Source: a virus. From it: a stretch of DNA of 64,000 nt. Made by a program: the position numbers and the translations under genes. The stretch's first letter is position 1, and the number at the start of each line of letters is the position of its first letter. This document shows, in pieces, positions 2,892 through 19,628 of this stretch. Where the stretch lies: UHGV virus genome UHGV-1430915. One strand, written 5' to 3'. Under the pieces are notes generated by a model. The model ran no database searches and had not been told where the DNA came from. It worked only from the letters and a program-made list of their open reading frames with translations.

Positions 2892-2922
2892 AATTTATCC
2901 CTCTCTGCTAGTCTATGTTTGT

Positions 2923-2950
2923 ATTATATACTGCAGTTTTCAGATGTCAA
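2923..2950 (-). promoter_or_regulatory. sigma70-like promoter, leftward (TTGACA-16-TATAAT)
   Basis: Complement of 2945-2950 is TTGACA and complement of 2923-2928 is TATAAT. Confidence 0.5.
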
Positions 2951-2954
2951 CCTT

Positions 2955-3149: not shown

Positions 3150-3151
3150 AA

Positions 3152-3346: not shown

Positions 3347-3400
3347 AGTGCTCCCCTGTATTAATCGTTGTGGTGACTATACCACCTTAAAATATAGCTG

Positions 3401-3871
3401 TCAACACCCTTTGTACTCCACCACGATAATATCTATATCAAAAGTGGCAAGGTTAATAATGTCCTCTACATGTTCCCACTTCAAACCGCCTATGCCGCAC
3501 CCGATCTTAGGGATGTAGAATGGTAAAATCGACCCCTCAAATACTTCATTGACTCGCTCAAATCCTTTCAGTATTGAGAAATATTCAGCATTAGGTCCTG
3601 GATAGAACTGAGTATACAGATTTATTCCGTAGACAATACCTCTCGGAGATAAGTGCTCCCAACGGGAGAACGCGCCCAGTTTACTTAGGCAACCGTGCAT
3701 AGTCATTTTATCAGCTTCCAATGCTTGAGGGAATTCACGAGCAATCTGCTTTGCTACACCCTTCCCCATTGTGTGGAAGCAGTTACAACCGTGGATCAGG
3801 TGACCAGCACCGCTCTTAAAAAGGGAGATTAAATCTCCCTCTACAGTATCAATAATCACGATATTCCAGCT
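3401..3871 (-). CDS. macro-domain protein, Poa1p-like (ADP-ribose-processing)
   Basis: Motif LIHGCNCFHTMGKGVAKQIAREFP matches the Poa1p-type macro signature (IHxCNCxxxxGxGIAxQ...P) and is preceded by an IIDTVEGDLIS strand. Start likely the in-frame GTG near 3871 rather than the track ATG at 3940, which would overlap the upstream gene. Confidence 0.5.
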   Translation of the reverse strand, partial: SWNIVIIDTVEGDLISLFKSGAGHLIHGCNCFHTMGKGVAKQIAREFPQALEADKMTMHGCLSKLGAFSRWEHLSPRGIVYGINLYTQFYPGPNAEYFSILKGFERVNEVFEGSILPFYIPKIGCGIGGLKWEHVEDIINLATFDIDIIVVEYKGC

Positions 3872-4274
3872 CCTCTTCCACAATTTCAAAAAACTCAGTC
3901 CAGCACTGTGGCATATTGGAGTTACCGAAGTGGCTTTCATAGTAAAGGTTTTTACCGCTCGGAAGATAGAAATCTGTTACCTCATAAAATCCACAATCGT
4001 CGCACTCTCCCTCTTCAAACTTGGCCTTAATCTTAATACCAAGGAAGGTGAAAAGTTTATGGATATCTTCGGTCTCGAACTCCCAACTAATGTTGTTTTC
4101 CGCATCGGTGTAAAACTGGATCAGTAGGCCATCATCCATTTTTCCAAAATATTCTGTGAAGTAGCTCCCTTCCCAGAAGTCTTTGTGACAAATAATATCC
4201 ATGCGCTTGCCCATAATAAAGGTGTGGGCGTTTCGTGCATCGTCACGAATCAGTTTTGGCATTTCATAAATCAT
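3849..4274 (-). CDS. hypothetical protein (141 aa)
   Basis: ORF track. Confidence 0.5.
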   Translation of the reverse strand: MIYEMPKLIRDDARNAHTFIMGKRMDIICHKDFWEGSYFTEYFGKMDDGLLIQFYTDAENNISWEFETEDIHKLFTFLGIKIKAKFEEGECDDCGFYEVTDFYLPSGKNLYYESHFGNSNMPQCWTEFFEIVEEELEYRDY

Positions 4275-4339
4275 CGTAGTTCTCCAGGATCAATAGGTGG
4301 TGCTACAGGAAGATCATAAAACATGGCGATCACATTCTC

Positions 4340-4537
4340 TTACGCAGGAATTGCTTCAAACAGGCCGTTATCGATACCATCTTTCAAGTAAAGATTATAC
4401 TCTATGTCGGTATCTGTGTAAAGGGCAGCATCCAGCATTCTATCTGTGAGTCCATCCATTGGGTGGAGAAACCACCACCCACGCCAGTCAAAGTAACAAC
4501 CTGGTGCATCTTCTCTCACACGGATTCGATAAATCAT
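4340..4537 (-). CDS. hypothetical protein (65 aa)
   Basis: ORF track. Confidence 0.4.
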   Translation of the reverse strand: MIYRIRVREDAPGCYFDWRGWWFLHPMDGLTDRMLDAALYTDTDIEYNLYLKDGIDNGLFEAIPA

Positions 4538-4633
4538 GGGCAGTGGCCTCCTGTTAGTTACACATCCCAGTTTTCTTCGTTCATCACATCCTCCAGCTCT
4601 ACAAGGTTATAATTGCACACCTTACAACCTGTG

Positions 4634-5050
4634 TCAACAGAAAACTTCAACAAATTCTTCCACAGTTTTAATGTCGTGGGAAAAAGGTTTACGGCTATAA
4701 CGAGCAATAGCACTGTCAACCACCGCCCGGTACTCCAAATCTTCAGAATATTTCATGAAGCATTGCAATGTCTCTGGACAGATAGCCAGATAGCTCCACC
4801 ACCCCTCTTCAGATTGGTAGTCAAATCCCATACTCTCTAGCCACGAAGCGTATACACCTGCACCTTCCAGCCAGTGAGTATTTTCATCAAGGAACTTGTT
4901 CACAGTCATGTGAGCTTCTAAGCATTTATCCAACTCTTTTCCGTTAACCAGCCACGCACTGACAGTGGCGCATCCAAGGTCCACAGATTGGGTTGATAGA
5001 TTGTATTGGTCATAGTTCTCAGGTTTAACAATGATATCTTCTAATGTCAT
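4634..5050 (-). CDS. hypothetical protein (138 aa)
   Basis: ORF track. Confidence 0.5.
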   Translation of the reverse strand: MTLEDIIVKPENYDQYNLSTQSVDLGCATVSAWLVNGKELDKCLEAHMTVNKFLDENTHWLEGAGVYASWLESMGFDYQSEEGWWSYLAICPETLQCFMKYSEDLEYRAVVDSAIARYSRKPFSHDIKTVEEFVEVFC

Positions 5051-5068
5051 TTTTCAGTCCTCTCTATA

Positions 5069-5097
5069 CAAAAATGCCCCACCCTTTCGGGTAGGGC
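5069..5097 (-). terminator. rho-independent terminator (minus strand), GAAA-loop family
   Basis: On the minus strand GCCCUACCC-GAAA-GGGUGGGGC then a U-tract; the stem has a G.U wobble only on the minus transcript (C.A mismatch on plus). Confidence 0.6.
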
Positions 5098-5112
5098 TAT
5101 GTTAACTAGATG

Positions 5113-6339
5113 TTAAAAAGGTATGTCATCATCAAAGGCGTACTGTGCCGGATTCTGATCCATCGGGTCGTCTTCCGCATCATCTACAGGAGGAGCGTCT
5201 ACAGTGTTTTGCTGTGGGGCGGCTTCCTGTTTGGCAGCTTGAGGCTCTTGATGGTCAGTGGCTCCAGCACCGTTCTTGATCCAATCATACAACGGTTCAG
5301 CAAGATTAGTCAAGACATCTTTTGCCTCTGCAGTAATTGCTACTGCAAAATCATCAACTTTCGTTTTCTTGTCAATACGGCGACAAGCGTTCAATACCGC
5401 ATTACCAACACTGGCACCTACTTCATCTTCAGTTCGGTTAGTGGCTTGAGCGTACTCTTTCTTAAGCTCGATGGTGACCACGTGCAGTGTTTTAGCCACA
5501 TCTAAAGGGCTGTCAATCTTAAACCCGCGATCCAGGATGATCTGCAATGCATTGATACTGTGCCCTGTCTCTACACCGATGGGGTCGTAAGAGGATTTAC
5601 GCTTACCACCAGAACCTTGTGTACCGTTCTCTGCTTTAGGCGGGTAGGCCTTGAAGCCGCTGATAATATTCCCGGTATCTTTGTCAACAATAGCCGCAAC
5701 ACGACCGCCAACCACCAGGTCTTTAAGCTGCTCATCGGAGACAACCATAGCACCTTCGCCAATCTTGTGGTCATTGACAGTAACCACGTTACCAACAATC
5801 TGAGTCACATCACCATAGATGCGTAAAACGTCCTGATTGGCATTCTGCTGAGGTTTCTGCTTCTGGCCTTGTGATTGTGTGCCTTGTTGCTGTTTTTGTT
5901 GCTGTGGAGCTGCTGGAGCCTCTCCTGCCCCCAGCTTAACCATTTTAGCCAATGAGCCTTTGTAATAGGTCTTACCGTTATGCTCATTTGCCTTTAAAGG
6001 GATATTTACGATCCATCCTGGCGTTACTGTTTCCCACTTGTCATCAATTTTAACAGAGACGGAATCTTGATGACCTGGTTTGAGCAATTTATCACCCATG
6101 CTGATCCAAACTTCTTCACCACCTTGGAGTAGGTTATCAGAAGAATCCAGCTCAGAAATCAGTAAAGAGATGGTGTGGCTGGACTCAATTTTCTTACCTT
6201 GCCACACAGTGGTTTTAATACCTGTTGTGGGATCAGCACCTTTGATTGGCTTGATGCTGACACGTTTAATCATACCGTGAGCCAGTAAAACAGTTTCACG
6301 AGGATTCATCGGGTTGGCAAATTGTTGAATAACGCTCAT
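5113..6339 (-). CDS. replication/recombination-associated protein with an E. coli SSB-like C-terminal tip (DDDIPF); candidate ssDNA-binding protein
   Basis: C-terminus ...PAQYAFDDDIPF; Q/P-rich low-complexity linker in the middle; start set to ATG at 6339 (SD AAGGAGA, TAATG overlap with the upstream stop) rather than the track start at 6486. Confidence 0.5.
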   Translation of the reverse strand: MSVIQQFANPMNPRETVLLAHGMIKRVSIKPIKGADPTTGIKTTVWQGKKIESSHTISLLISELDSSDNLLQGGEEVWISMGDKLLKPGHQDSVSVKIDDKWETVTPGWIVNIPLKANEHNGKTYYKGSLAKMVKLGAGEAPAAPQQQKQQQGTQSQGQKQKPQQNANQDVLRIYGDVTQIVGNVVTVNDHKIGEGAMVVSDEQLKDLVVGGRVAAIVDKDTGNIISGFKAYPPKAENGTQGSGGKRKSSYDPIGVETGHSINALQIILDRGFKIDSPLDVAKTLHVVTIELKKEYAQATNRTEDEVGASVGNAVLNACRRIDKKTKVDDFAVAITAEAKDVLTNLAEPLYDWIKNGAGATDHQEPQAAKQEAAPQQNTVDAPPVDDAEDDPMDQNPAQYAFDDDIPF

Positions 6340-6749
6340 TATTTGTCTCCTTGTTCTTCGTTGGTGTTTGCTGTGTGTGCAAACCCTGCTTGAATTAATT
6401 TGTCCTGCACTTGAGCCAACAGGCCCATTGCAAAACTTGTCGTCCCAGAAAGGGCCATTAGCATATCTCGTTGCTGAGCTACCCAACCTAAGGCATAATC
6501 CAAACGACGATATTTTTCTTCTTCGCGCAGAGCCTGGAATAACTGTTCAGCCTCTGGTTGTTGTGTGAGCTCCTGAAGTCTCCCCATGAAAGAAGAAAGT
6601 ACCAGCAGAAGAGACACTTGATCTTTGCTTAACCCTAAGAAAAATTCTTGAGGTTGTTCTTGCTCGTTCATCGCAACCGACGTTTGATCGTTCATTTGTT
6701 CCATTGTGGAATCTCCGATTTTATTTGAACAACATAAAGGAGACACCAT
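6339..6749 (-). CDS. hypothetical protein (136 aa)
   Basis: ORF track; translationally coupled to the downstream gene. Confidence 0.5.
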   Translation of the reverse strand: MVSPLCCSNKIGDSTMEQMNDQTSVAMNEQEQPQEFFLGLSKDQVSLLLVLSSFMGRLQELTQQPEAEQLFQALREEEKYRRLDYALGWVAQQRDMLMALSGTTSFAMGLLAQVQDKLIQAGFAHTANTNEEQGDK

Positions 6750-6786
6750 TTTAGCATCTCCTTCTGTAAATTACAACAGGTATTTG

Positions 6787-7032
6787 TTAGCCAATTACTT
6801 CGAAAGTACCCCAACTCCCGTTCAGCAGGCAGGTGATCGGATCACCATCATCGTCAATTATTTCAAAGTTTTCAACATCCAGAATATGGTCATCGAACAC
6901 AATACTTTCGTCACCACCACCAGAAACAACAGTGTATTCCTTACCTTGAGTCAAGTTTTGACACCCTTTGCCACCAAAACCTACTTCAACACAACGTACT
7001 TTCTGTCCTGCGCGAGCAACTACTTCAGCCAT
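6787..7032 (-). CDS. hypothetical protein (81 aa)
   Basis: ORF track. Confidence 0.45.
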   Translation of the reverse strand: MAEVVARAGQKVRCVEVGFGGKGCQNLTQGKEYTVVSGGGDESIVFDDHILDVENFEIIDDDGDPITCLLNGSWGTFEVIG

Positions 7033-7049
7033 CTTAAGGTCTCCTGATA

Positions 7050-7370
7050 TTAATCGTCAAGTTCAAAATAGATTTTAACAGCTTCATCAAAGATTGGAAT
7101 CCCGATGTTGTTGATAAGCTGCCAAACTACCATATCTTTTCCTGGATCTGGGAGAATGTCAACCTTTCTCCATGCGCTGTATATCCAGTTCGGACCGCCT
7201 TCTGCACTAACTGGTAGATTTTCACCAGCTTCCTGTAGATACTTATACAGCAAAAGATATTCTGGGTACTCTAGAACACTATCTTCTGTAGTATACAGCA
7301 GTTCACGGTATACTTTCAAGAATCCTGTTGGGTTGATGTTTTCAGTCTTCATTTGCTGCTTCTCCTGCAT
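7050..7370 (-). CDS. hypothetical protein (106 aa)
   Basis: ORF track. Confidence 0.5.
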   Translation of the reverse strand: MQEKQQMKTENINPTGFLKVYRELLYTTEDSVLEYPEYLLLYKYLQEAGENLPVSAEGGPNWIYSAWRKVDILPDPGKDMVVWQLINNIGIPIFDEAVKIYFELDD

Positions 7371-7746
7371 TCATCAGATCTGCCATAGCGTCACCAACGA
7401 AGAGGACAACCACGTCGTTGACAGCGTCAGCATCATCTTTATTGATGTTGCTGAATTTGGGGCACACTGCAATGACCATATAGACCCCGTTGCCCAACTG
7501 AACAGTGCGTGTAGTGCACATCAGTGTGGTGCTTGTGCCTTCTTTAAAGGCAAATCCTTGCAGACGTTCTTCCAGAGAGTCACCTGTTGATTTCAACAAG
7601 GCAAGATCTCCCAGTGCGTAGGTAGTGTCCTCATAGGTCAGTCCAGAGGTCAATGTTGTCTTTCCATCAGAGACTATAATAACTCCATCGGCACCGTCAA
7701 GCTCAGAGGCTTCAAAGATATTAATATCCCAAATGTTTTTCATCAC
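7342..7746 (-). CDS. hypothetical protein (134 aa)
   Basis: ORF track. Confidence 0.5.
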   Translation of the reverse strand: MMKNIWDINIFEASELDGADGVIIVSDGKTTLTSGLTYEDTTYALGDLALLKSTGDSLEERLQGFAFKEGTSTTLMCTTRTVQLGNGVYMVIAVCPKFSNINKDDADAVNDVVVLFVGDAMADLMNAGEAANED

Positions 7747-8015
7747 GCTTCCTCGTCATCTAAGTAATCATCAAGAGAGGTGAAGATTTCACCGAAGTAT
7801 TCTAATACCTCCAGCTCTCTGGTGGTGCAACAAACATAATCTTCCTGGTCATCCTTGATAGTAGCCTCCTTACCTAGCACATCCACTTCAAATTCATCGT
7901 TTAGCAGGACGGCCCCTGTGTAAATTTTGTCTGCTGTGCAGTCCCGAAAAGCAGAGTCCTTCTCCAGATAGTCTGGCTTAACCTTGGCTTTAATTCGTTG
8001 ATATTGTTTGGTCAT
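7743..8015 (-). CDS. small acidic protein, paralog A of a tandem pair (90 aa from MTKQYQ...)
   Basis: Shares ...KPxx...AF(R/K)DCT...IY... and KDD(Q/E)xDxV(C/W)CT blocks with 8079..8333; start moved to ATG at 8015 (SD AAGGAGA) so it falls downstream of the promoter at 8047-8075. Confidence 0.5.
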   Translation of the reverse strand: MTKQYQRIKAKVKPDYLEKDSAFRDCTADKIYTGAVLLNDEFEVDVLGKEATIKDDQEDYVCCTTRELEVLEYFGEIFTSLDDYLDDEEA

Positions 8016-8046
8016 TGCTGTGGTCTCCTTTCGTTTTGATAGGGCC

Positions 8047-8075
8047 ATTATATTAGACCCCATCTCTATTGTCAA
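8047..8075 (-). promoter_or_regulatory. perfect-consensus sigma70 promoter, leftward (TTGACA-17-TATAAT)
   Basis: Complement of 8070-8075 is TTGACA, 17-nt spacer, complement of 8047-8052 is TATAAT. Confidence 0.65.
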
Positions 8076-8078
8076 GTA

Positions 8079-8333
8079 TTAATGCTCAGGTTTTACAAAA
8101 ACTACTTCGTTAACAGTGCACCAGACAGAATCCCCTTCATCATCTTTAAAGGTAAGACACTGGGCCGAGTTTTCCAACTCATCAAGTTCTTCTTGTGATA
8201 AATAGGTCCCTTCTTCCAGAAGGGCTTTTACCAGAGGGTTCTCACAAAACTCTGCTTCATAAATTGCACCGAGTGTGCAATCTTTAAAAGCTCGGTCATT
8301 TGCAACGCATTCTGGCTTCAAAGTGATTTGCAT
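8079..8333 (-). CDS. small acidic protein, paralog B of a tandem pair (84 aa)
   Basis: ORF track; motif sharing with 7743..8015. Confidence 0.5.
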   Translation of the reverse strand: MQITLKPECVANDRAFKDCTLGAIYEAEFCENPLVKALLEEGTYLSQEELDELENSAQCLTFKDDEGDSVWCTVNEVVFVKPEH

Positions 8334-8384
8334 CTTAGCAGTCTCCTCAATTATTTAAAAATCAAATCTCTGTTTGTGTGAAGT

Positions 8385-8413
8385 ATCTTATATCCAATCT
8401 TACTTCTTGTCAA
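8385..8413 (-). promoter_or_regulatory. sigma70-like promoter, leftward (TTGACA-17-TAAGAT)
   Basis: Complement of 8408-8413 is TTGACA and complement of 8385-8390 is TAAGAT; same -10 variant as the plus-strand promoter at 27527-27555. Confidence 0.5.
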
Positions 8414-8781
8414 TGGCTATTTTCAATCATCCACACAGGGTCGAGGTAAATTTGTTGGCGTTTTGCCCAATGACAAACTTCATTGTACATCTGAATCTCT
8501 TTGTCTGTCAATTCACGAATAGGCTCATCTATACCCTCATTTTTGTGGTAATCCCAGTCGGCATCGATTTCCCACAACCATGACTTACGATCTTCACGCT
8601 TACGCACACAGAAGTCCCCAGGACGGCCTGCCAGTGCATTTAAGAACTCGTTCTCCGCTCGCTCCTGAAGAATACTAAGGAGCAAAACGTTGGAGCATGA
8701 CCGTAAAATATGCTTCAGCTCACAATCATCGATCTCAACTTCAATACGTTGCTTGACTGTGTGGGTACCTTTTACTAACAT
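8410..8781 (-). CDS. hypothetical protein (123 aa from MLVKGTHTV...)
   Basis: ORF track frame; start moved to ATG at 8781 with strong SD GAGGAGG, removing overlap with the gene ending at 8792. Confidence 0.5.
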   Translation of the reverse strand: MLVKGTHTVKQRIEVEIDDCELKHILRSCSNVLLLSILQERAENEFLNALAGRPGDFCVRKREDRKSWLWEIDADWDYHKNEGIDEPIRELTDKEIQMYNEVCHWAKRQQIYLDPVWMIENSH

Positions 8782-8791
8782 TCTACCTCCT

Positions 8792-8986
8792 CTATACAAA
8801 CTCTGCAAGGGTTGTGTTGTTCACCGCACCGCAGTAGATGGAATATCCCAACCCATTAGGGTGCAGAAACCACGGCACACCTTGGTCATCCTTCACGTAT
8901 ACATCTCCATTTTCCGTGAAGGGCCAATACTCTTCCCCAAGGGTAAAATACCTACTCATACCTTCAGCCAGATACTTTACTTTCAT
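8792..8986 (-). CDS. small protein, member 1 of a tandem three-gene paralog family
   Basis: Shares the F..G..Y.V ... KDD(Q/R)G..W(F/Y)L ... G ... pattern with the two genes upstream. Confidence 0.45.
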   Translation of the reverse strand: MKVKYLAEGMSRYFTLGEEYWPFTENGDVYVKDDQGVPWFLHPNGLGYSIYCGAVNNTTLAEFV

Positions 8987-9210
8987 AGATCCTCTTCAAC
9001 AACTACAAACTTGGCAAGTAGGGTGGTCCCATAGATATGATACTCACCATTTGACAGATGGGAGATATACCAGGAGATACCGTCCTCGTCTTCGATCATA
9101 TTGTTCCTGCGATCCTTATCGTAATAAACCTTGTAGACCTTACCTTCTTCAAAGAATGACAGGTCTGTCATCTTTTCTTCTACAAACGTAGCTTTAACCA
9201 AAGTTGTCAT
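8983..9210 (-). CDS. small protein, member 2 of the tandem paralog family
   Basis: EEGKVYKVYYDKDRRNN...DGISWYISHL matches the family pattern; stop/start overlaps with neighbours. Confidence 0.45.
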   Translation of the reverse strand: MTTLVKATFVEEKMTDLSFFEEGKVYKVYYDKDRRNNMIEDEDGISWYISHLSNGEYHIYGTTLLAKFVVVEEDL

Positions 9211-9491
9211 TGATCTGTCTCCTTCTTGTTGAGCCGGAACACTGCAATAATAGCATTTCCAAGATGCAGTGTCAAATCATTCCCCAGATACCATAACATT
9301 CCACGGTCATCTTTAATGAAAGGGTAACAATCCGGTGCCTTCCAGACATTATACACTTTGCCGACCTGAAAGAAATCAGGCCCTGTTGGAATTTTAGTAC
9401 CGGGCCACACTTGGGACACCTGAACGCACTCTACCTGCATAATGACAGGGATAGTCATGGAGGTAAATGTTTTTGTTGGTTCTACTACCAT
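9207..9491 (-). CDS. small protein, member 3 of the tandem paralog family
   Basis: QVGKVYNVW...FIKDDRGMLWYLGNDL matches the family pattern. Confidence 0.45.
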   Translation of the reverse strand: MVVEPTKTFTSMTIPVIMQVECVQVSQVWPGTKIPTGPDFFQVGKVYNVWKAPDCYPFIKDDRGMLWYLGNDLTLHLGNAIIAVFRLNKKETDQ

Positions 9492-9542
9492 AAAAGTCTC
9501 CTCTCTTTGTCTAACAACACTTCCGTGTGTTGATAGTTTACA

Positions 9543-12320
9543 TTAGTGACAATCGCCCCAGTTACGACCGCACAAGTATTCACCTGTGATCTGGAACGGA
9601 ACGCCCATCATTTTAGAAGCCTGCCAGAAGCAATGCACCACCATTTCGCCCACAGGGCTCCAGATAAGTTCAAGCTTTCCGTCATCGTTCAAGATAGGAT
9701 CGTATACCGTATTTCCGTCCTTGTCAACCACTTCGTTTCCGTCCTCATCTTTGTGTGCCTTTTTGTACTTATGACCGTCGAACACATGAAGTTTAGCCTC
9801 TTGTTGGGCTTTAAATGTTTCCAGCTCTTCAATTGTGTCGAAGGTGTATACAGTTTTATACTTAGGGGTGTCAGGCACTTGAAGCTGATATTCGTCATGG
9901 TAATAAATAATACGACGAACACCTTCATCATACCATCCACGCTTCACCATTTGGTGGTGCATGAGGATTCCGACCAAGTCGCACAACGATGCACCGCCAT
10001 TTTGCTGATATGCATTAAGCAAAGAGTGTTTAGAGCGGGTCCAAATGGCATGCCCGTCAAAAGAGTAGATAAATTTCTTACCTGTTGCTTCCCAGAATTT
10101 CTCCAGATCCTCTTTGCGCCCCTTAAGACCTGGGTTGGCATCCCAGAGAGCATCAATTACTCTCTGCCCCAGTTCTGGAGAGATATCCAGCATATCTGCA
10201 ACTTTATCTTTTTGTGCCCCATACATAACCCCATACGTGATAGGTTTACCATCGTTACGAGACACCTCTCTACCTGCTACTTTTGTATATGCCTCAGCAT
10301 TGTTTTGGTGCGCGTCCCCGTTACTTACAACATCATAATACAGGCCGTTGTCAAACTCAAATGCACCCCAGGCCCCGATGAGCTGCTCTAAGTTGGACCC
10401 GTCAATACCGATCTCAAAGTATCCAGGAGGAACACCCCACAGACTACGCATCTCTTTACCCATAACCACTTTAGGAGATGGTTTAGGCATGTTTGCACAA
10501 ATACTATGTTTCTGTCTGGAAGTGTTTGTTAATCCAGAACTTTTAGCAGGAAGCTTGTGGTCAATCTTCAAACGTGGATGATTAAGAAGACCAGTATCAA
10601 CCTTATCTTCCTTGATTGGATCAAGGACCGATCTGCGGTTTCGCAATGATAACCACAAAACGATATCTTTAGCCATCTCTCCGTTCAATTTTTCAAGATT
10701 CGGGCACAGGTGTCCAAACGTATCTTTCAGTTGCGGAGAAGTAATAAGCGCTCTGGCTTTTCTACGTATCTTCCCAAACACTTCCTTTTTAATCCTTTCT
10801 GAGTTAGGGAAGCTTCGGAACTTATGCACAGTTGTCTGGAACTTGGCATCAGTTTTGTTCCAGAAGTTGATAATTAGATCACAATACTCTGACTCCAAAA
10901 GCTCGTCCATATATGCATATACTCGTGCATCAACATCTGCATCAGGTAAAGCTTTCTTCTTGCTGTCTTTAGTTACATCTTTAGTTCTCCACATTGTTGG
11001 GAGCCAACCAGCACTGATCAGGTATCGCTTGATGTCGTCCTGATTGCTGATTTTCATAGGTATCTTGCAGTCAGGCATTCGCTTCTGCTGTAGGTCACTT
11101 ATCGCCTGATCCATCAGCTCTTTAGGTAAAGGGTGTGGTGTAGAAGTTCCTTTGATATACCCCCTCAAGAAATCAGCCATCTTATCGGGGTCTTTACAGC
11201 CCATCTCTTCACACCATTTTATCCCCATCTTACTTACATCCCCTGTGGAGGTAAATGCTCGCTTAGGAGGAGCTTTGAACTCTAAAGCACTCATGTCCAC
11301 AGGGTAGCCAAGCTTGTCTTTTAACCATTTCCAACCATTATTGGAGATTGTCCCATCCTGGTTAAACGGCTTTTCAGGGAACTTAGGCCGCTGAGACATT
11401 GATAACTCTTTTAAAGGAAGTTGTGGTTCAACACGATCAGCGATCTCTTTCATCCACGCATCGCAACGGTCACGTAAAGCAATAGCCCCATCTATGTCGA
11501 AATACACCCCCTGTCGAGCCTGCAGCTCCATCAGGAAGTGCTGTAACATGCCTCGGCGTAATGCGTTCTTCCAGGTGATCTTCTTGAAGCCTTTCGGCTT
11601 CTCTTTGGCAGGATCGTACATAAAGTTCTGCATGTCAGATTTGCCGTAGAATACACCTTTTGATTCCGCTACCAACTCCTTCCAGAGCAACTCCTGAATG
11701 ATAACGTCCTCGAACACACGATCCACATACTTCCACAGCGGAAGCTCACGCCAGTCATCGATTTGAACTTTCTGGTTACCAAGGGCATAGCCCCATGCCA
11801 TAAGACCATGAGGTCCAACAGGCTGCATTTTCTTAGTAACTGGATTGAATACTGCGTCCGGACAACCTTTTGGCAAAGGGCGGTCAGGCCACAAGATTCG
11901 ACTCATCGCTAACGTATCAAACAGATTAACCTGGTGGTCGTTGATAGTTCCCATGCATTTAGGATCACGGAACATATCAAAATGAATACCGGATAATCTC
12001 TCCATCAGCATAAAGTCGTAGCTGTAGCAGTTATGACAGTTCAAAGCTGTAGGTGACCAGTCTGAGTTACCTGTAAGCCAACCCTCCAACTCTGAAAAAT
12101 CTGCTATGCGAACATCAAAATCTGTATAAAGGGTCTTCTTTGCCAGAATGAAGTTCTTAGCTTTCTCCACATCCTCTTCAGAGTAGTGTGTGTGGTCATT
12201 TAGAGGAAGGAACAGCATAAAACGGTTCTTATTCAACTCTTTAAACAAACCGCAGTGATAATAAAGATCTGGATCTTCCAGCAGGCCAGAGGCCTCAAAA
12301 TCGAAAGACCACATACTCAT
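9543..12320 (-). CDS. DNA polymerase, family A (T7 gp5-like, with 3'-5' exonuclease)
   Basis: Exo I motif FDFEASGL at residues 6-13 (the position it has in T7 gp5); motif A-like DGSNLEQL, motif B K..YG..YG, motif C YYHDE. Confidence 0.85.
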   Translation of the reverse strand: MSMWSFDFEASGLLEDPDLYYHCGLFKELNKNRFMLFLPLNDHTHYSEEDVEKAKNFILAKKTLYTDFDVRIADFSELEGWLTGNSDWSPTALNCHNCYSYDFMLMERLSGIHFDMFRDPKCMGTINDHQVNLFDTLAMSRILWPDRPLPKGCPDAVFNPVTKKMQPVGPHGLMAWGYALGNQKVQIDDWRELPLWKYVDRVFEDVIIQELLWKELVAESKGVFYGKSDMQNFMYDPAKEKPKGFKKITWKNALRRGMLQHFLMELQARQGVYFDIDGAIALRDRCDAWMKEIADRVEPQLPLKELSMSQRPKFPEKPFNQDGTISNNGWKWLKDKLGYPVDMSALEFKAPPKRAFTSTGDVSKMGIKWCEEMGCKDPDKMADFLRGYIKGTSTPHPLPKELMDQAISDLQQKRMPDCKIPMKISNQDDIKRYLISAGWLPTMWRTKDVTKDSKKKALPDADVDARVYAYMDELLESEYCDLIINFWNKTDAKFQTTVHKFRSFPNSERIKKEVFGKIRRKARALITSPQLKDTFGHLCPNLEKLNGEMAKDIVLWLSLRNRRSVLDPIKEDKVDTGLLNHPRLKIDHKLPAKSSGLTNTSRQKHSICANMPKPSPKVVMGKEMRSLWGVPPGYFEIGIDGSNLEQLIGAWGAFEFDNGLYYDVVSNGDAHQNNAEAYTKVAGREVSRNDGKPITYGVMYGAQKDKVADMLDISPELGQRVIDALWDANPGLKGRKEDLEKFWEATGKKFIYSFDGHAIWTRSKHSLLNAYQQNGGASLCDLVGILMHHQMVKRGWYDEGVRRIIYYHDEYQLQVPDTPKYKTVYTFDTIEELETFKAQQEAKLHVFDGHKYKKAHKDEDGNEVVDKDGNTVYDPILNDDGKLELIWSPVGEMVVHCFWQASKMMGVPFQITGEYLCGRNWGDCH

Positions 12321-12378
12321 ATACAGTTCTCCTTAAAGGGGAGGCGGTTGTACTACCCCTCCCACTCTTGGTTAAACA

Positions 12379-14457
12379 TTAAAAAGGTGTTTCGTCGTCT
12401 TCAAAACCCGGAACGTGGTTAGAGGACGGATCATCATACTGAAGATCTTCCTGTGTGTCAACAGGGTTAACAGCAGGAGTTATAACTTTATCAGCCACAA
12501 CCTTGCCCACAGGTGTTTCTACAACTGCATGCTCCTGATCCTCAAACATAGCTTGAGGTCTCCAAACAACCTCCCCACCTTCCCCGTCTGTAAACATCTG
12601 CATTTCTTTATCCCAATACCAATTGCTGGCATCGTGGAACTTGCCTGTGTGGGGATCCATAACTAGAGTGTCCGCAATACCTAAGGTTTTTGCTGGGCGG
12701 TTTTTAAGACCTACCAGCCGGACACGTCCACGGGAACGATCCACCATCTCCTCTGCCTCTACCCCGACAACCACCCAGCTAAGTTGCTCCAATCCGGCAC
12801 TACCGCGAAGGTTCTCTTTTCGTACAGGGTACCAGAAAGGTAACGGATTTCCATCCTTATCCTTCGGAGGTACAATCTCTGTGCGCTTCAGGTGAGCAAT
12901 CACCAAGATAAACACATTAAACTGCTTACAGAACGCGGCTAGTTGAGTCATAGCCATGTCAAGCTCTTTACGCTCATCCTTAACATTAAGCCCTGAAATC
13001 ACCATAGACAGGTGATCCAGCACAATGTAACGGCAGTGATACAGGCACACCATTTGTTTAAGCTTAGTGATCAGCTCATCTACAGGAATGGAGCCGAAAT
13101 GCTTGAACACTTTGATTTTTCCGGCCTTGGCCCAAGATTGATGAATCTCAGCGTGCTCCTGATCGGTCAGGAACTGACTGGGGTCTTCAACAAACTCTTT
13201 AACATCAAACCCCAGCTGGTTAGCGTACAGAGAGTTGATTGCTTCCTCAGGATCCTCTTCAAGGTGAATCAGGCACAGGCGATCATCCTCTTCATAATCA
13301 TCAGCTTTAGGGCATGTTGGATCCATCAAGTATCTTGCAATGCAATGTTCCAGCTTCTTGGCTACAGTTGTTTTACCACCGCCAGACGGGCCTGTCAGCA
13401 TCATCAAGGTGCCTTTGTGGAGTCCTTTCAGCATCTTCTGCAGTTTAGGGAACTCTGCACTGATATCTACGCCATTGGAAGTCTTCTTACGAAGAGATTC
13501 AATGGAGAAGTCTTCTAAATCAGATACAGCATCAGGCACATATTTGACTGGGTGACGGAACATGTTGACAATATCTTCCAGCTTTTTAGCCTTCAGCATG
13601 TCACGGATATCTTTTACACCATCAGGATCGTTTACCTCGCCAGGATATTCCACGTGGTAAACGTTGTCAGCCATCAAAAATGCTGCGATATTATGCGTAG
13701 CTTCAACACCTTTGATAACGTGTTTTTGCTTCTCTACCTCGTTAGCTGCATCGTTGTCCATTGCAAGGACTACTGTTCCGTAGCTACGGATAAATTTCTC
13801 ATTGTTCGCAAAAGTGTCTACTGCGTTTGCACACCCGCAGTTAATTCCAACAAAAGGCAGGCATGGTTTTCCTGCAAGATCGCCGCCGTTGATAACTGCA
13901 TCGATCCCATCCTGGACTTCTTTAGCCCACTGCTTCACCTTCGCTGGGGCTTTAGCATTGGTGAGAATTCCTTTTACTTGTACCTGATATGCAGCCTGCC
14001 ACGCTGCAATAACATCCCCTTCCCCCTCACAAACGTTAATCTGCTTGCGGTTGTTGGAGGATGCACACAGCTTTTGACCAAACATCTGGGAGTTGGCCTT
14101 TACTATGCCGACAACCGAGAAATGGCCCCTTTGCTCTTTAGGGATTGTCCAGTCACGCTTTTTAAAGCCAGATAGATTACCGTAGCGGTCGTAATACGGA
14201 AAGTAGGTGGCAGTAACAGTTACACCATCCTCTTGGGATAGCGATGATCGTACACCAAAATATTGTGCAGCCATCAGTCCAATATTTTGTTGTGGAACAG
14301 GGACAATTTTAGTATTTTCTAAAACAGTTTCTACAGTTTCAACTTCTTTTTCATCACGATAGTCTCGTTTCACACTTCCCCCACTTTTATACTTAGTTGC
14401 TTTCGGGTTTGGCTCACCGAAACGGTTGTATGCAGATGCCATGAATTTACTGCCCAT
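12379..14457 (-). CDS. bifunctional DNA primase/helicase (TOPRIM + DnaB-like; T7 gp4-like)
   Basis: TOPRIM acidic motifs CEGEGD and MDNDAANE; Walker A GPSGGGKTT; C-terminal acidic tail ending FEDDETPF. Confidence 0.8.
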   Translation of the reverse strand: MGSKFMASAYNRFGEPNPKATKYKSGGSVKRDYRDEKEVETVETVLENTKIVPVPQQNIGLMAAQYFGVRSSLSQEDGVTVTATYFPYYDRYGNLSGFKKRDWTIPKEQRGHFSVVGIVKANSQMFGQKLCASSNNRKQINVCEGEGDVIAAWQAAYQVQVKGILTNAKAPAKVKQWAKEVQDGIDAVINGGDLAGKPCLPFVGINCGCANAVDTFANNEKFIRSYGTVVLAMDNDAANEVEKQKHVIKGVEATHNIAAFLMADNVYHVEYPGEVNDPDGVKDIRDMLKAKKLEDIVNMFRHPVKYVPDAVSDLEDFSIESLRKKTSNGVDISAEFPKLQKMLKGLHKGTLMMLTGPSGGGKTTVAKKLEHCIARYLMDPTCPKADDYEEDDRLCLIHLEEDPEEAINSLYANQLGFDVKEFVEDPSQFLTDQEHAEIHQSWAKAGKIKVFKHFGSIPVDELITKLKQMVCLYHCRYIVLDHLSMVISGLNVKDERKELDMAMTQLAAFCKQFNVFILVIAHLKRTEIVPPKDKDGNPLPFWYPVRKENLRGSAGLEQLSWVVVGVEAEEMVDRSRGRVRLVGLKNRPAKTLGIADTLVMDPHTGKFHDASNWYWDKEMQMFTDGEGGEVVWRPQAMFEDQEHAVVETPVGKVVADKVITPAVNPVDTQEDLQYDDPSSNHVPGFEDDETPF

Positions 14458-15211
14458 TAATTCTTCTCCTTACTGCAGGCTCGTTTGCTAAGAATACAGC
14501 TCTTGCCCAGCCACGTGGTGTAAGGCTTCGAATCATCTTCGTCCTTGCACTCTTTCCACCTAGCTTAGCGTGTTGCATGGAATAACCACTAACCACATCA
14601 ACTATTTGCGGGACAGGTTTTGTGGCGGGGATTATAAATCCATTGCCTATCCAACCGCAAGTTATTTTTGGGTAGGCATCCCGTGGAGCTATAAATTCAG
14701 GAAACCAGGGGTTTACATCATCCTCCGGTAAATACCCGCCATAATCTGAAGGATGAAAACGGTAATCAGGTTTTCGCCACAGTGTGGACATAACTCCCAC
14801 AGGATTCTCTACATGCCACGGGCAATCGTAAATCTCTCCCAACTCTTCTGCAACCCGAGCATCTTTTACAGCATTAATTTGAATCAGAGGGTCCTTAGCC
14901 AGCTTTTTCTTAAAATGTGCAGCGCCTGATACTGCTAAATGCGTGCACGGAGGAAATGCAAGAATAAAGTCTGGAGCTGGGTACATGCAAAAAGTTTCTT
15001 GAGGGAACCACGGGTCAATCCAATAATCCACGTAGTGAATGTTGGGATGATCGGTTATCACCTCTGCATAACTGCCATGGTCAGCACCTTCTGCGTTAAA
15101 GCACAGGCACAGATATCCAGCTTTTGCCCAGTCAATAACTGCACCACCAGACCCGTCAAATAGACTCCACACAACACCTTTGTGGTAGTGTTCTTTGTAG
15201 ATAAATTTCAA
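14447..15211 (-). CDS. DNA (cytosine-5)-methyltransferase-like protein
   Basis: Motif I LFDGSGG, motif IV FPPCTHLAVSGA (PC catalytic dipeptide), motif VI VENPVG. Start is uncertain: the track GTG at 15241 lies inside the terminator hairpin, so TTG at 15211 with SD AGGAGA is preferred. Confidence 0.55.
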   Translation of the reverse strand: MKFIYKEHYHKGVVWSLFDGSGGAVIDWAKAGYLCLCFNAEGADHGSYAEVITDHPNIHYVDYWIDPWFPQETFCMYPAPDFILAFPPCTHLAVSGAAHFKKKLAKDPLIQINAVKDARVAEELGEIYDCPWHVENPVGVMSTLWRKPDYRFHPSDYGGYLPEDDVNPWFPEFIAPRDAYPKITCGWIGNGFIIPATKPVPQIVDVVSGYSMQHAKLGGKSARTKMIRSLTPRGWARAVFLANEPAVRRRINGQ

Positions 15212-15227
15212 TTTGCTGTCTCCTAAT

Positions 15228-15256
15228 GCAAAAAGCCCCACCCTTTCGGGCAGGGC
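15228..15256 (-). terminator. rho-independent terminator (minus strand), GAAA-loop family
   Basis: Minus RNA GCCCUGCCC-GAAA-GGGUGGGGC then U-tract; two G.U wobbles exist only on the minus transcript; near-duplicate of the 5069-5097 terminator. Confidence 0.55.
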
Positions 15257-15262
15257 CTAGTG

Positions 15263-15745
15263 TTAAACCCGGATACCTATTGTATACTCGGTGGATACCA
15301 ATGTCAAATCTAAATTTAAAATTTCTTGCATCTCATAGTATGCATCCAGAGTGAGATACATTTCCCCATCCTCTTCTACATACTTGTCGAGATGTTTGAG
15401 GCACTTTGGATAACTATCAAGGGCAGCTTTTAAGCACTCAAACTCCGTGCTGTTGATGAATCCTTCCATCTTGGCTACCCGTTCTGGAGTAACAATAGCA
15501 CTGTAGTGAGATTTAGCTTCCTGAATGCAATGGGTCCAAGCATCAACTTTCTCTTCAAAAAGCCCGAAGAATTTCTTTTTGGTGAGTTTCAGATTTTTTA
15601 AGTGCTTAAGCACTCGGTTGCCGATTACAGCCACATCACGAAACTTAAAGATAACTTTGTCGATATCCTCGCGGCCTATTTTCACAAAGCAGGCCTTGCA
15701 CATCTCGGGAGCAGCGTAGCCTACCTTCCACATAAAATCTGACAT
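15263..15745 (-). CDS. hypothetical protein (160 aa)
   Basis: ORF track. Confidence 0.5.
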   Translation of the reverse strand: MSDFMWKVGYAAPEMCKACFVKIGREDIDKVIFKFRDVAVIGNRVLKHLKNLKLTKKKFFGLFEEKVDAWTHCIQEAKSHYSAIVTPERVAKMEGFINSTEFECLKAALDSYPKCLKHLDKYVEEDGEMYLTLDAYYEMQEILNLDLTLVSTEYTIGIRV

Positions 15746-15757
15746 AACACTCTCTCC

Positions 15758-16153
15758 TTATTCCTGAAAAGCAACAATATCATATGCACTTGCAGATGAT
15801 CCTGGTGAAGAGTGACTCCAGTCTAGGTCATCAGAGTAGTCAGCATACTGTGCACCGCTACGTAGTTTGTATTTTACCCACTTACCTGGTGCAGGGTTTT
15901 CACCACCTTCCCATGTTTCCCAGCCTTCTGGTAGGCCATCCTGAGAGTAGTCGTCCACCTCACTAATAATCTTAGGGTTTGGCACCAAGATTCCTGCTGG
16001 TTCTTCCTTCTTAGCAAGTGTCCACACAATGTATGTGTCTGAACAGGAGCATGTCAGTAAAGTATACCCACTGTTCAGAACTTCTGAAAGCTCTTTTTCA
16101 GCATCTTCTAATTTGGTTAGGTGGTATTGGATAATCTTCACATCTGTAATCAT
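15758..16153 (-). CDS. hypothetical protein (131 aa)
   Basis: ORF track. Confidence 0.5.
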   Translation of the reverse strand: MITDVKIIQYHLTKLEDAEKELSEVLNSGYTLLTCSCSDTYIVWTLAKKEEPAGILVPNPKIISEVDDYSQDGLPEGWETWEGGENPAPGKWVKYKLRSGAQYADYSDDLDWSHSSPGSSASAYDIVAFQE

Positions 16154-16458
16154 CAGAAACCTCCTGTCTCTTCAGCAAATGCAGCCGCTGTTGTTGCTGC
16201 ATCCAGATAGGACTCTAGTTCACGTGCTGCCCGTTTGTAAATCGAGTGGCGCATATCGTTCGGCAGTTGGTGAAAATCCACCTCTTCTCCGTTGTGGTAA
16301 ACATGCACATCAGTAATCTGTCTAAATCCATAATAATCAACATCAGAATCACGGCACTCTGGATCTGGCAACTGGACAACTGCCTGAGCCTCTACAGTGA
16401 GCATATTGTCAAGTTCGAAATCGATTTCAAAAGTATATGGTTTATAACGCTTCATCAT
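16153..16458 (-). CDS. hypothetical protein (101 aa)
   Basis: ORF track; ATGA overlap with the downstream gene. Confidence 0.5.
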   Translation of the reverse strand: MMKRYKPYTFEIDFELDNMLTVEAQAVVQLPDPECRDSDVDYYGFRQITDVHVYHNGEEVDFHQLPNDMRHSIYKRAARELESYLDAATTAAAFAEETGGF

Positions 16459-16514
16459 TCGGTGTTCTCCTTATCTTGTGTTAAGAGTAGACCTCTCCTT
16501 CGATATTTTAAATA

Positions 16515-17858
16515 TTACTCTAAATCTTCTTCTGAGTCAAGCTTATCTTTCACAACTAAGTTCTGGGCAAGTTTGTAATAACGAAAGCCCCCACCACCTT
16601 GCCAGTTTACAGATTTAGAAATACCACTTTGATCTTCACCATCGATCACTTTTTGCAAGCGTGGAATAATATGGGTATGACAATGATCTCCTAGCTCAAC
16701 CGAGATCCAACGTCTTTTCATCTTGTGAGCTACAGCAGCAGTAGTCCCCGAACCGCCGAATGAATCCAATACTAAATCTCCTTCTCGCGTACACATTTCT
16801 AAAATCCGCTTCAAAAGCGCTTCAGGTTTTTTTCCATTTTTGAAACTAACGCCCCCTTCATTTGCTATTCCATTCCAACTAATGTCAGTCCAAACATCAG
16901 TTATTAGTTCAGCAGGCTGCATCTCACCGTCAATTTCCAAAAGCCTATTAGAATAAAAGACCATTTGCCTACCATTTGCGATATAAAAGCCTTCGACATC
17001 CTCATTTGGATGTACATAAACCTTATCCCTATCTTTCTTTGACTTCTCGATAGTTTCTTTTCTCTTTATTTTGGCACCACCGCCAATTGCAACGGATTGA
17101 AATACACGTTCTGCATTATCAATTGCAAATTGTGCTAATTCATCATCAAATGTATCAGGCAGTTTTTTCTTGGCTTCTTTTGTATCTTTATAGCCATTGG
17201 CCTTTGCAAACGCATCGGCAATACCGCACCACGTCCAACTTTTATAATGGTCATCTGGGTTTAATAGATATTTGTTATATCCCGTATCATACTCTTTAGG
17301 TATATAGATTTTGTTAAGTGGTTTCTTGGTACGATCTTTTGCATATACAAGCAAAAAGTTTGCTGTGGAGAAAACTGTAGTTCCTGTTGCCTTAAAGCCT
17401 GAAGGGCAATTTGTAGTCATCGATATGGTATTTAACTGATTTGCACGACCAAAAATCTCGTCCATCAAGACTTTTAAATAAGCCATTTCGCAGTCATCTA
17501 AGTGAACGAATATCACTCCATCATCGCTTAGCAGATTACGAATTATTTCTAATCTGTCCCGCATTAAGCCCAGCCAAATGGAGTGCTCCAGGCTATCATC
17601 GTAGTGCTCAAAATCCCTTCCGGTATTAAATGGCGGGTCTATGTAAACACACTTCACTTTGCCTGCATACTCTTGCTCTAGTGCCTTCAATGCCAGTAAG
17701 TTATCTCCAAAAATCAGTTTATTATCAAAAATATCGTTTTCGGTCACCTTTTTACTGGCGTGATAAGACTTGCTCGAATCTTCTAACAAAATGTGAGGCT
17801 CTAGCTTTTTGCGCTCGTTCTTACCTATCCAGGTAAGTTCTAATTTGGTTTTACTCAT
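16515..17858 (-). CDS. DNA amino-methyltransferase (N6-adenine or N4-cytosine; DPPF motif)
   Basis: Catalytic motif IV YIDPPFNTG; length and layout fit beta-class amino-MTases; target base cannot be told from sequence. Confidence 0.7.
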   Translation of the reverse strand: MSKTKLELTWIGKNERKKLEPHILLEDSSKSYHASKKVTENDIFDNKLIFGDNLLALKALEQEYAGKVKCVYIDPPFNTGRDFEHYDDSLEHSIWLGLMRDRLEIIRNLLSDDGVIFVHLDDCEMAYLKVLMDEIFGRANQLNTISMTTNCPSGFKATGTTVFSTANFLLVYAKDRTKKPLNKIYIPKEYDTGYNKYLLNPDDHYKSWTWCGIADAFAKANGYKDTKEAKKKLPDTFDDELAQFAIDNAERVFQSVAIGGGAKIKRKETIEKSKKDRDKVYVHPNEDVEGFYIANGRQMVFYSNRLLEIDGEMQPAELITDVWTDISWNGIANEGGVSFKNGKKPEALLKRILEMCTREGDLVLDSFGGSGTTAAVAHKMKRRWISVELGDHCHTHIIPRLQKVIDGEDQSGISKSVNWQGGGGFRYYKLAQNLVVKDKLDSEEDLE

Positions 17859-17919: not shown

Positions 17920-18261
17920 CTACTCAAGGTCTTCAGAGTCAAGCTCAAAAAGAATCAAACTGTGCATGCCTGCAGAGAGATCAACACACCCTGCAACAAT
18001 AAGGGTTTGATAGTAAGGTTCAGCACCCTCAATATCTTCGTTAAAATCCACAACAAGGTAGTCACCTTTGTTAAAGGTGTATTTGTCCGATGTAAACGCA
18101 AAACCTGCCCAGTCCCCTACTGCAGGATCTTTATCAGTCACCTTTGTTAGCAGTAGATCTTTTTCACGAGATCTTTTAGTAAAATCGTGAATCACAACAT
18201 CCTTCTCTTCAGGAGTCGGATTGCCACACACGTAGTTAACGATATTTCTCCACAAACTCAT
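17920..18261 (-). CDS. hypothetical protein (113 aa)
   Basis: ORF track; 4-nt overlap with the helicase gene. Confidence 0.5.
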   Translation of the reverse strand: MSLWRNIVNYVCGNPTPEEKDVVIHDFTKRSREKDLLLTKVTDKDPAVGDWAGFAFTSDKYTFNKGDYLVVDFNEDIEGAEPYYQTLIVAGCVDLSAGMHSLILFELDSEDLE

Positions 18262-19628
18262 ACGTCCCCCTTTTCTGCTCTAGTTTCAAAATCTTTCCTG
18301 ACTTTCTCGTCTAAGCCAGGGAAAGTTGTATTATAAAACTCTACGACTCTCGGGTCAACAATAATATCCACCTCTCTTAATGGACGCAACAAGTTTATTC
18401 CTTGTATCGTCTTAACCCGACTCAAGGCAACATACGTCATTCCGGGAGAGAAAGCTCCGTTCTTTCCGAGGTCTAGGTTGTAACAATCTAACGTAAGTCC
18501 TTGACTTTTATGCGATGTTACTGCGTACCCAGATTTCAAAGGAAGTTGCTCATAAGACCCGATCACAACCCTCTCTATGAACTTCTCCATCTTCCTTTCG
18601 GCAATATTGTACCTCTGGGAAGGTTTGTACTCGTTATTCTCCCACAATCTTGGCTCAATTTCAACCTGTGTTCCGTCTTCTAGCTCAACTACTACGGATT
18701 TGGTCTTGAATTTTACCACTGTGGCACGTGTCCCGTTAACATAATACGGAACTTTGTGAGTAGGGTCAACATCGTTTGAGGTTATCATAACCTTCATCCC
18801 TATCTTCAGCCTCATTTCCTGCTCCACAGGTAGTGTGGAAGGGAACTTACCTTTCATTTTACCAATGTAGGTCTTCTCTGGGGCCTTGATGGCATCATAG
18901 AAACGTCTGTTCACCTCCTCTGCTTGCTTATTGGTGGCACAGATGGTCAAGGCATCTGTTGGGACACCACCATGATAGCAACGAGTGTTAAGCTCTGCTA
19001 CAACCTCTTTTATGCGACGACCTTCACGAACACAGTTCAACATTGTGGCGAAGCGAACAGATTCCTGACGGAACTGGTCTACTAAGGCTATGTTGTGAAG
19101 ATTAAGATCCTCCCAAGATTCTGTATAGCAACACAGGTCTGTGTGGTAGAAGTTGAAGTAGGCTTCTTTCTCCATAGAAGAGACAACTGGAGGTGCTTGG
19201 TAGAAATCTCCAAACAATAACACCTGAATGCCTCCGAAAGGTTTGTCATTTTTCCGAAGAAAGCGGAGTTTTCTATCCATCTCTATGAACTTGTCAGCAC
19301 GGATCATAGAGATTTCATCGATAATCAGGATGGTAAATGCCTTGCTTTTCAGAGGCTTTGCTGTTTTTGCCCTTATTGCTGTCCAGTCTGACTCCATGCT
19401 CACACCTGCGGCAAGATCGAAAGTTCGGTGCGCTGTTGCTCCATTAACGTTTAAAGCGGCTACCCCTGTCGGGGCAACCGTTATGCAAGAGTCTCCATAC
19501 ATGGACTGGATCATGTTGATAAGATATGTCTTCCCGGTTCCACCAGGTCCACTTACGAAGACATTCTCACCGCTCATGATTGCAACAAGGGCAGCATCTG
19601 TGCCTACATCGTACTGCCCTTTTTCCAT
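18258..19628 (-). CDS. SF1 DNA helicase, Dda/RecD/PIF1-like
   Basis: Walker A GPGGTGKT, Walker B IIDEISMI, C-terminal VTSHKSQG motif. Confidence 0.75.
   Translation of the reverse strand: MEKGQYDVGTDAALVAIMSGENVFVSGPGGTGKTYLINMIQSMYGDSCITVAPTGVAALNVNGATAHRTFDLAAGVSMESDWTAIRAKTAKPLKSKAFTILIIDEISMIRADKFIEMDRKLRFLRKNDKPFGGIQVLLFGDFYQAPPVVSSMEKEAYFNFYHTDLCCYTESWEDLNLHNIALVDQFRQESVRFATMLNCVREGRRIKEVVAELNTRCYHGGVPTDALTICATNKQAEEVNRRFYDAIKAPEKTYIGKMKGKFPSTLPVEQEMRLKIGMKVMITSNDVDPTHKVPYYVNGTRATVVKFKTKSVVVELEDGTQVEIEPRLWENNEYKPSQRYNIAERKMEKFIERVVIGSYEQLPLKSGYAVTSHKSQGLTLDCYNLDLGKNGAFSPGMTYVALSRVKTIQGINLLRPLREVDIIVDPRVVEFYNTTFPGLDEKVRKDFETRAEKGDV

Follow-up and report, generated by a model that had tools for sequence, protein, structure and literature searches.

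Two orphan methyltransferase genes in a vequintavirus replication module and the case for narrow, system-specific protection

Do two DNA methyltransferases (MTases) of different chemistry in one phage replication module amount to a broad shield of methylation against restriction, as an earlier note on this DNA suggested, or is each directed at a narrower set of enzymes? The question is raised by a 64,000-nucleotide stretch of the virus genome UHGV-1430915 (the whole of which is the window below), in which a compact, Dcm-like C5-cytosine MTase gene (14447-15211, encoding 254 amino acids, aa) and an orphan β-class N6-adenine MTase gene, resembling a type III Mod subunit without its C-terminal domain (CTD; 16515-17858, 447 aa), lie on the minus strand about 1.3 kb apart. 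The two open reading frames (ORFs), their spacing and the difference in their chemistry are as the earlier note described them; one protein has a C5-cytosine fold and the other is a β-class N6-adenine enzyme. The 4.3-kb region around both genes is 99.8% identical to Escherichia phage B9-1 and 93-98% identical to more than 100 rV5/FV3-like Vequintavirus genomes, 118 vequintavirus records sharing it in all, and on this nucleotide identity the source is a Vequintavirus (rV5/FV3-like), a phage of E. coli. Our analysis favours the second answer. The two genes probably encode independent orphan MTases, each narrow in specificity, that would mark replicating phage DNA using S-adenosylmethionine (AdoMet), and narrow, system-specific protection is a better-supported reading than broad protection. 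The adenine enzyme copies one particular type III Mod, and its protection would therefore be narrow.

The adenine methyltransferase and its E. coli counterpart

The 447-aa protein has the DPPF motif from which it was originally called an amino-MTase (aa 74-77, nt 17628-17639), and its motif I, DSFGGSGTT (aa 365-373, nt 16740-16766), with FGGSG at aa 367-371, gives the β-class motif order. It matches the Pfam family N6_N4_Mtase (PF01555) with E=1.4e-43 and 149.9 bits against a cut-off of 26.7, the match spanning residues 68-394 and profile positions 1-216 of 221, and its best sequence matches in the PDB are type III Mod subunits. The PADLOC profile MTase_III (PDLC03636) is matched with E=2.2e-204, over profile positions 2-445 of 575 only. 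Most Mod relatives, found in many bacterial phyla, are 560-600 aa long and 60-77% identical to the phage protein, and one from E. coli, the 567-aa protein P0271, shares 95% of its amino acids with it over aa 1-441. The P0271 gene lies directly upstream of the gene for a 912-aa ResIII protein, and PADLOC reads this E. coli pair as MTase_III (E=6.1e-284, full-length profile) and REase_III (E=8.8e-191). At the nucleotide level the segment 16529-17871 (minus strand) is 94.0% identical by blastn to the chromosomal E. coli type III mod gene from nt -14 to 1330, with homology that is abrupt at both ends and stops at the 3' side near codon 443 of 567. GC content is 39% in this segment and 40% in the E. 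coli gene, with the phage flanks at about 45%. Judged by sequence, the 447-aa gene is a captured, 3'-truncated copy of an E. coli type III mod.

Among 5,426 complete E. coli genomes the mod-res pair is present in 29 and a phage-like mod in 25, all chromosomal; K-12 and CFT073 are not among the E. coli mod matches listed. The mod-like gene is carried at an identity of at least 80% by 88 phage records, and Vequintavirus is the only phage genus represented above 80%. No Res gene adjoins the phage copy, whose neighbours are hypothetical proteins of 113 and 101 aa and a Pif1-like helicase. The E. coli mod-res locus lies in a mobile defence island (L005, positions 1-13551; GCA_026236215.1, contig JAMTDA010000002.1), in which genes for an AlpA-like regulator, a 964-aa SNF2/ResIII helicase, Abi_2 and AIPR are also found and which is flanked by IS66-family genes.

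What the phage copy has lost can be read against EcoP15I, in which Mod has four parts: an N-terminal domain (NTD) that intertwines into the dimer, the MTase core, a target-recognition domain (TRD) and the CTD (PMC4490356). Dimerisation there is through the NTD and the MTase domain, Mod2 acts as a methyltransferase by itself, and it is the CTD (residues 539-644) that contacts Res extensively (PMC4490356). The phage Mod keeps all but the region that matches the EcoP15I CTD, an equivalence that is positional only; the corresponding missing part of P0271 (aa 445-540) is a globular α/β domain in an AlphaFold (AF2) model. Over residues 190-352, which span the putative recognition domain, the phage and E. 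coli Mod proteins have 100% identity although their genes carry eight synonymous differences, and other vequintaviruses show 0-4 differences there. Because this region is identical, the phage Mod very likely shares the specificity of the P0271-type system.

Mod relatives without a CTD also occur elsewhere, with no clear pattern in the two examined (P0300 and P0323). The first, of 452 aa, is a 71%-identical Mod relative from a split gene, in which ORFs of 452 and 139 aa precede a 912-aa Res (L018, positions 4810-9323; ENA ERZ27250211, k141_937471), suggesting either a CTD that can have an ORF of its own or a frameshift in this copy. The second, of 442 aa, has an SNF2 gene and one for a TnsA-like protein as neighbours, on a contig that does not look like phage. 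In the window, the 101-aa ORF that comes directly downstream of mod (16153-16458, minus strand) was considered as the lost Mod C-terminus, given the arithmetic 447+19+101=567, and was rejected, having by eye no resemblance to the C-terminus of P0271. The same ORF has weak matches to PHROG families labelled 'DNA methyltransferase' (phrog_1573, E=2.9e-6; phrog_2060, E=0.004) and no Pfam match.

The compact Dcm-like protein

The three C5-MTase motifs originally read in the 254-aa protein are all present and stand out in an alignment of 40 homologues. Motif IV (P87-P88-C89, nt 14945-14953, with the catalytic Cys89 at nt 14945-14947) and motif VI (E135-N136-P137, nt 14801-14809, with Glu135 at nt 14807-14809), the latter an ENP variant of ENV, are invariant, and in motif I (LFDGSGG, aa 17-23, nt 15143-15163) F18, G20, S21 and G22 are invariant or nearly so, with F18, G20 and G22 kept in at least 90% of homologues. 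A C-terminal IRSLTPRG block is likewise conserved. The protein belongs to a large family, with 4,176 homologues in a protein collection clustered at 90% and 1,009 representatives when it is clustered at 50%, almost all of them 210-260 aa long; by tblastn the family is present in 1,506 of 50,697 phage records, including Drexlerviridae, Klebsiella phages and records of about 160-176 kb. It matches phrog_757, labelled 'DNA methyltransferase', with E=5.8e-87, and 24 of the 40 family members match PF00145 below threshold (best E=1.3e-6).

Since searches against PDB sequences were nearly empty, the single protein finding only a marginal match to motif I of M.HaeIII and the family profile finding no match, a comparison of folds was needed. 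The AF2 model built from the 40-homologue alignment is confident (pLDDT, the predicted local distance difference test, 90.8; pTM, the predicted template modelling score, 0.90) and has the three-dimensional fold of C5-MTases, its best fold match being DNMT3, itself an enzyme with a small TRD. No sizeable TRD is found between motifs VIII and IX in the predicted model, where about 30 mostly irregular residues (190-221) separate the motif VIII strand (184-189) from the C-terminal helices. The view that this enzyme is short and lacks a TRD of normal size is thus borne out by the family lengths, the DNMT3 match and the brevity of this gap. Because the hallmark residues are invariant, the model is confident and relatives show sub-threshold PF00145 matches, the protein is predicted to have a divergent but genuine C5-methyltransferase fold.

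The closest characterised relative comes from a study of retron Ec86, reported as a preprint, in which mutants of phage K42 (95% identical to the BASEL phage KarlJaspers) that escape the retron map to a 711-bp 'Dcm-like' gene (10.1101/2023.08.16.553469). Expression of K42 Dcm raises 5-methylcytosine (5mC) in multicopy single-stranded DNA (msDNA), as measured by liquid chromatography coupled to mass spectrometry (LC-MS), the C82A/E128A/K175A/K176A mutant is inactive, and the authors modelled the enzyme on DNMT3A (10.1101/2023.08.16.553469). The KarlJaspers gene is also 711 bp, and by residue count C82, E128, K175 and K176 fall on its PPC, ENP and KK positions. BLASTP aligns the KarlJaspers protein with that of the window over the full length (54% identity, E=9e-87), and the equivalent residues are C89, E135, K182 and I183. 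By analogy, the 254-aa protein would bind AdoMet at motif I, attack cytosine through the Cys89 nucleophile in PPC, with Glu135 in ENP, and carry a vestigial recognition region much as DNMT3 does; it most likely makes 5mC at a short motif. For that motif CCWGG has been proposed in the 54%-identical relative, where it was not rigorously mapped.

The start of this gene was placed most likely at the TTG at 15211, which would give the 254-aa product, with the mechanical ORF extending to a GTG at 15241. This choice was made because a Shine-Dalgarno sequence, AGGAGA (15219-15224, minus strand), lies 7 nt upstream of the TTG, because the GTG falls inside a hairpin, and because related records agree: the 254-aa coding sequence with a TTG start is the annotation in phages S127 BCL3, FV3, naswa, Murica and MaxBurger, and the Murica record annotates a ribosome-binding site at the same spot. 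The hairpin (15233-15258, minus strand) resembles an intrinsic terminator, with an 11-pair stem, a GAAA loop and a T-run, and the Murica record annotates a terminator at the matching position. At the other end, the earlier note had the gene overlapping the primase-helicase stop, which is wrong. The overlap is with the primase-helicase start, the Dcm-like stop codon (TAA, 14447-14449) and the primase-helicase ATG at 14457 bounding 11 shared nt (14447-14457, minus strand), and the ATG has an AGGAGA of its own 7 nt upstream; translational coupling of the two genes is possible. Directly upstream of the string of Dcm-like, primase-helicase and polymerase genes we also observe a sigma-70-like promoter match (TTGACA-17-TACAAT, 11/12, 15279-15307, minus strand, a consensus match only), followed within about 20 nt by the strong terminator-like hairpin. 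A terminator so soon after a promoter would be odd, and the hairpin may act as a 5' stem-loop on the transcript instead.

Narrow or broad protection

Purifying selection on both genes is strong and speaks against their being pseudogenes. In pairwise Nei-Gojobori comparisons of six vequintaviruses the ratio of non-synonymous to synonymous change (dN/dS) is 0.02-0.05 for the Dcm-like gene, at synonymous divergence (dS) of 0.16-0.45, and 0.05-0.10 for the mod-like gene, at dS of 0.2-0.34; between phage and E. coli Mod it is 0.08-0.11. The point of truncation in Mod (…KDK) is common to all six phages. On the reading of two narrow, independent enzymes, a Mod2 dimer would hemi-methylate the adenine of its cognate asymmetric site, and, without the CTD, it would not assemble with Res. 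We infer that progeny would leave the cell pre-immunised against the P0271-type type III system and isospecific ones, whatever the host on which they were grown, while the Dcm-like enzyme would block whichever restriction enzymes overlap its short motif.

Several points weigh against this reading. The window C5 protein itself matches no family in Pfam (PF00145 included, none at E<=0.1) or NCBIfam, and its Ile183 replaces the second lysine (K176) mutated in the K42 study. The CCWGG specificity in that study was assumed from the host Dcm and backed only by msDNA mutants (10.1101/2023.08.16.553469). In the window CCWGG is the most depleted pentamer (99 observed versus 153 expected, z -5.8), a depletion that tells against the reading because it would be needless if the site were reliably protected. 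Taken as a sign of CCWGG methylation, it would be explained equally well by avoidance of an EcoRII-type enzyme, and KarlJaspers has no CCWGG depletion (z +0.4). Shorter Mod ORFs (342-389 aa) are present on a few vequintavirus contigs, so some lineages may be able to do without the gene. In the literature searched, no methylation data were found for this or any other vequintavirus, nor any methylome or restriction-digest data for rV5-like phages.

It is unlikely, in our estimate, that the C5-like protein is no simple 5mC methylase and instead transfers another group (e.g. carboxymethyl from carboxy-S-adenosylmethionine, Cx-SAM), acts on another substrate or serves a role other than evasion. Such a reading would suit its absence from Pfam families, the lack of any link between MTase content and restriction resistance among BASEL phages, and the known cost of the gene, which triggers retron Ec86. 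It is countered by the 5mC detected by LC-MS for the K42 homologue, by catalytic Cys and Glu residues that are invariant in the family, and by the surroundings of the gene, where there is no Cx-SAM synthase or hypermodification gene nearby and the three intervening ORFs have no recognisable domains.

The truncation of Mod invites two further readings. In the first, which we hold to be a long shot, the protein, trimmed of the Res-binding CTD but with an identical recognition domain and dimer interface, would both pre-methylate progeny and form Res-blind heterodimers with host Mod that disarm the cognate complex during infection; if that were true, loss of the CTD after capture of a mod gene could be a general signature of phage counter-defence. 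The second, a shade more doubtful, makes the CTD-less Mod a decoy or subunit poison, whose heterodimers with host Mod, joined through the conserved N-terminal and MTase interface, would not hold Res, so that the cognate type III enzyme would be disabled during infection, instead of or besides methylation of phage DNA. The decoy would make sense of the 95% identity to host Mod across the dimerising regions, the strong purifying selection on the gene and a truncation that removes precisely the part by which EcoP15I Mod contacts Res. However, a pure decoy would have no use for DPPF, FxGxG and the recognition domain, all of which are intact and conserved; restriction strikes incoming DNA ahead of phage gene expression; and EcoP15I uses the CTD of only ModA, so that heterodimers might still bind Res.

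Broad protection, the proposal of the earlier note, fares worse still and is very unlikely. It would have the two enzymes together shield the genome, for example through non-specific or very-short-motif methylation by the TRD-less C5 enzyme, and there is something to recommend it: the C5 recognition region is only vestigial, a pair of chemistries might in principle stop a larger number of enzymes than either alone, and composition across the window (1-64000) resembles a footprint of 5mC deamination, with an observed/expected ratio (O/E) of 0.65 for CpG and an excess of TpG/CpA (1.19). The CpG ratios at codon positions 1-2, 2-3 and 3-1 are 0.81, 0.49 and 0.66, and that of non-coding DNA is 0.66. 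But KarlJaspers, of the same GC content and with a 54%-identical Dcm, has a CpG O/E of 1.10, and CpG depletion was accordingly rejected as a footprint of the C5 enzyme; because KarlJaspers shows neither the CpG nor the CCWGG depletion, neither can be attributed to the family. Four of the five most under-represented tetramers in the window are palindromic (GTAC, CTAG, ACGT and CCGG), with CATG and GGCC also in the top seven, the hexamers TGGCCA, CGATCG, GGGCCC, CTCGAG, GGCGCC, GCTAGC and CCTAGG are absent from it, and RCCGGY occurs twice against 22 expected. Such strong avoidance implies exposed sites, as would be expected of a phage whose DNA modification gives no broad protection.

Phenotypes point the same way. 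The BASEL phage MaxBurger carries the same pair, annotated as 'putative N6 adenine methyltransferase' and 'Dcm-like C5 cytosine methyltransferase', and in the BASEL phenotyping vequintaviruses with this pair were 'exceptionally susceptible' to EcoRI, EcoRV and two type III systems, the systems tested being EcoKI, EcoCFT_I, EcoRI, EcoRV, EcoP1_I and EcoCFT_II, with the P0271-type system not included. Broad protection is therefore unsupported by published sensitivity. Vequintaviruses and hanriverviruses with the Dcm-like gene were, moreover, isolated on MG1655; this strain is McrBC+, which argues against abundant 5mC preceded by a purine (R-5mC). Finally, the Mod copy has a specific recognition domain and derives from one particular type III Mod, as narrow, independent protection would have it. 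That the truncated mod is a decaying, functionless remnant of a captured restriction-modification (R-M) fragment is scarcely credible: the protein lacks about 22% of its ancestor and still shorter ORFs exist on some vequintavirus contigs, but its dN/dS stays at 0.05-0.10 between phages at dS up to 0.34, the PF01555 match and all catalytic motifs are retained, the truncation point shared by all six phages is thus old and stable, and 88 phage records keep the gene.

Neighbourhood and known systems

Every gene of the region is on the minus strand, and its description as a replication module is a fair one, as a DNA polymerase (9543-12320), the primase-helicase (12379-14457) and a Pif1/Dda-like helicase (18258-19628) adjoin the two MTase genes. 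Between the latter lie three small ORFs (15263-15745, 15758-16153 and 16153-16458), the 113-aa hypothetical ORF separates the adenine MTase from the Pif1/Dda-like helicase, and rIIB-like and rIIA-like genes follow beyond that helicase. A separate observation concerns public records. In the MG0656xx series (e.g. MG065644, MG065659 and MG065690), dozens of entries labelled 'Campylobacter phage' with C. jejuni as host are at least 93% identical to E. coli vequintaviruses across this region, and others are at least 80% identical to hanriverviruses across the Dcm region of pSf-1. By their look these are coliphage contigs, mislabelled or co-isolated.

Public vequintavirus records already annotate the two genes as an adenine and a Dcm-like cytosine MTase, and the pairing of two MTases has been noted in papers on related genera and the Vequintavirinae. 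One detail we found described nowhere: the origin of the adenine enzyme as a copy, minus the CTD, of a specific type III Mod of E. coli whose recognition region it shares unchanged. It is a testable example of a known strategy and not a new kind of system. The MTases should not be read as broad protection, a point that matters for predictions of host range in phage therapy. The adenine enzyme points instead to a specific target, namely the type III system that about 0.5% of complete E. coli genomes contain. The Dcm-like gene could prove a liability, as its relatives trigger retron Ec86.

Set beside known enzymes, the 254-aa protein shares with M.HhaI, M.HaeIII and E. coli Dcm (PF00145), and with the catalytic domain of DNMT3A/3B, a predicted Rossmann-type fold and motifs I, IV (PC) and VI (ENV-like). 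Unlike the bacterial C5 enzymes it is about 70-220 residues shorter, and unlike canonical C5-MTases it lacks a normal TRD and falls below the Pfam threshold, at 12-18% identity. It is closer to KarlJaspers (Bas06) gp55 and K42 Dcm, the retron Ec86 triggers of Drexlerviridae, being similarly compact (254 versus 236 aa), with the catalytic Cys, the Glu and the first Lys in common and the same DNMT3A-like predicted fold. It differs from them in the Ile that stands for the second Lys of the KK pair, and its gene in belonging to a different phage family and neighbourhood and in overlapping a primase-helicase gene. The retron study did not report on the sensitivity of vequintaviruses to Ec86.

The adenine enzyme, for its part, resembles the P0271-type mod-res system and EcoP15I Mod (PDB 4ZCF) in its β-class motif order and in its NTD, MTase core and TRD, and departs from type III Mods in having neither an adjoining Res partner nor the C-terminal domain of about 125 aa. 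The acquisition of host MTases by phages for evasion of restriction is already known, an example being the lactococcal 936-type phages (PMC4190342). There too, a virulent phage carries an orphan MTase from a host R-M system, presumed to serve self-protection against that system. The phage Mod described here differs from the 936-type case in being derived from a type III Mod and in no longer having the Res-binding module.

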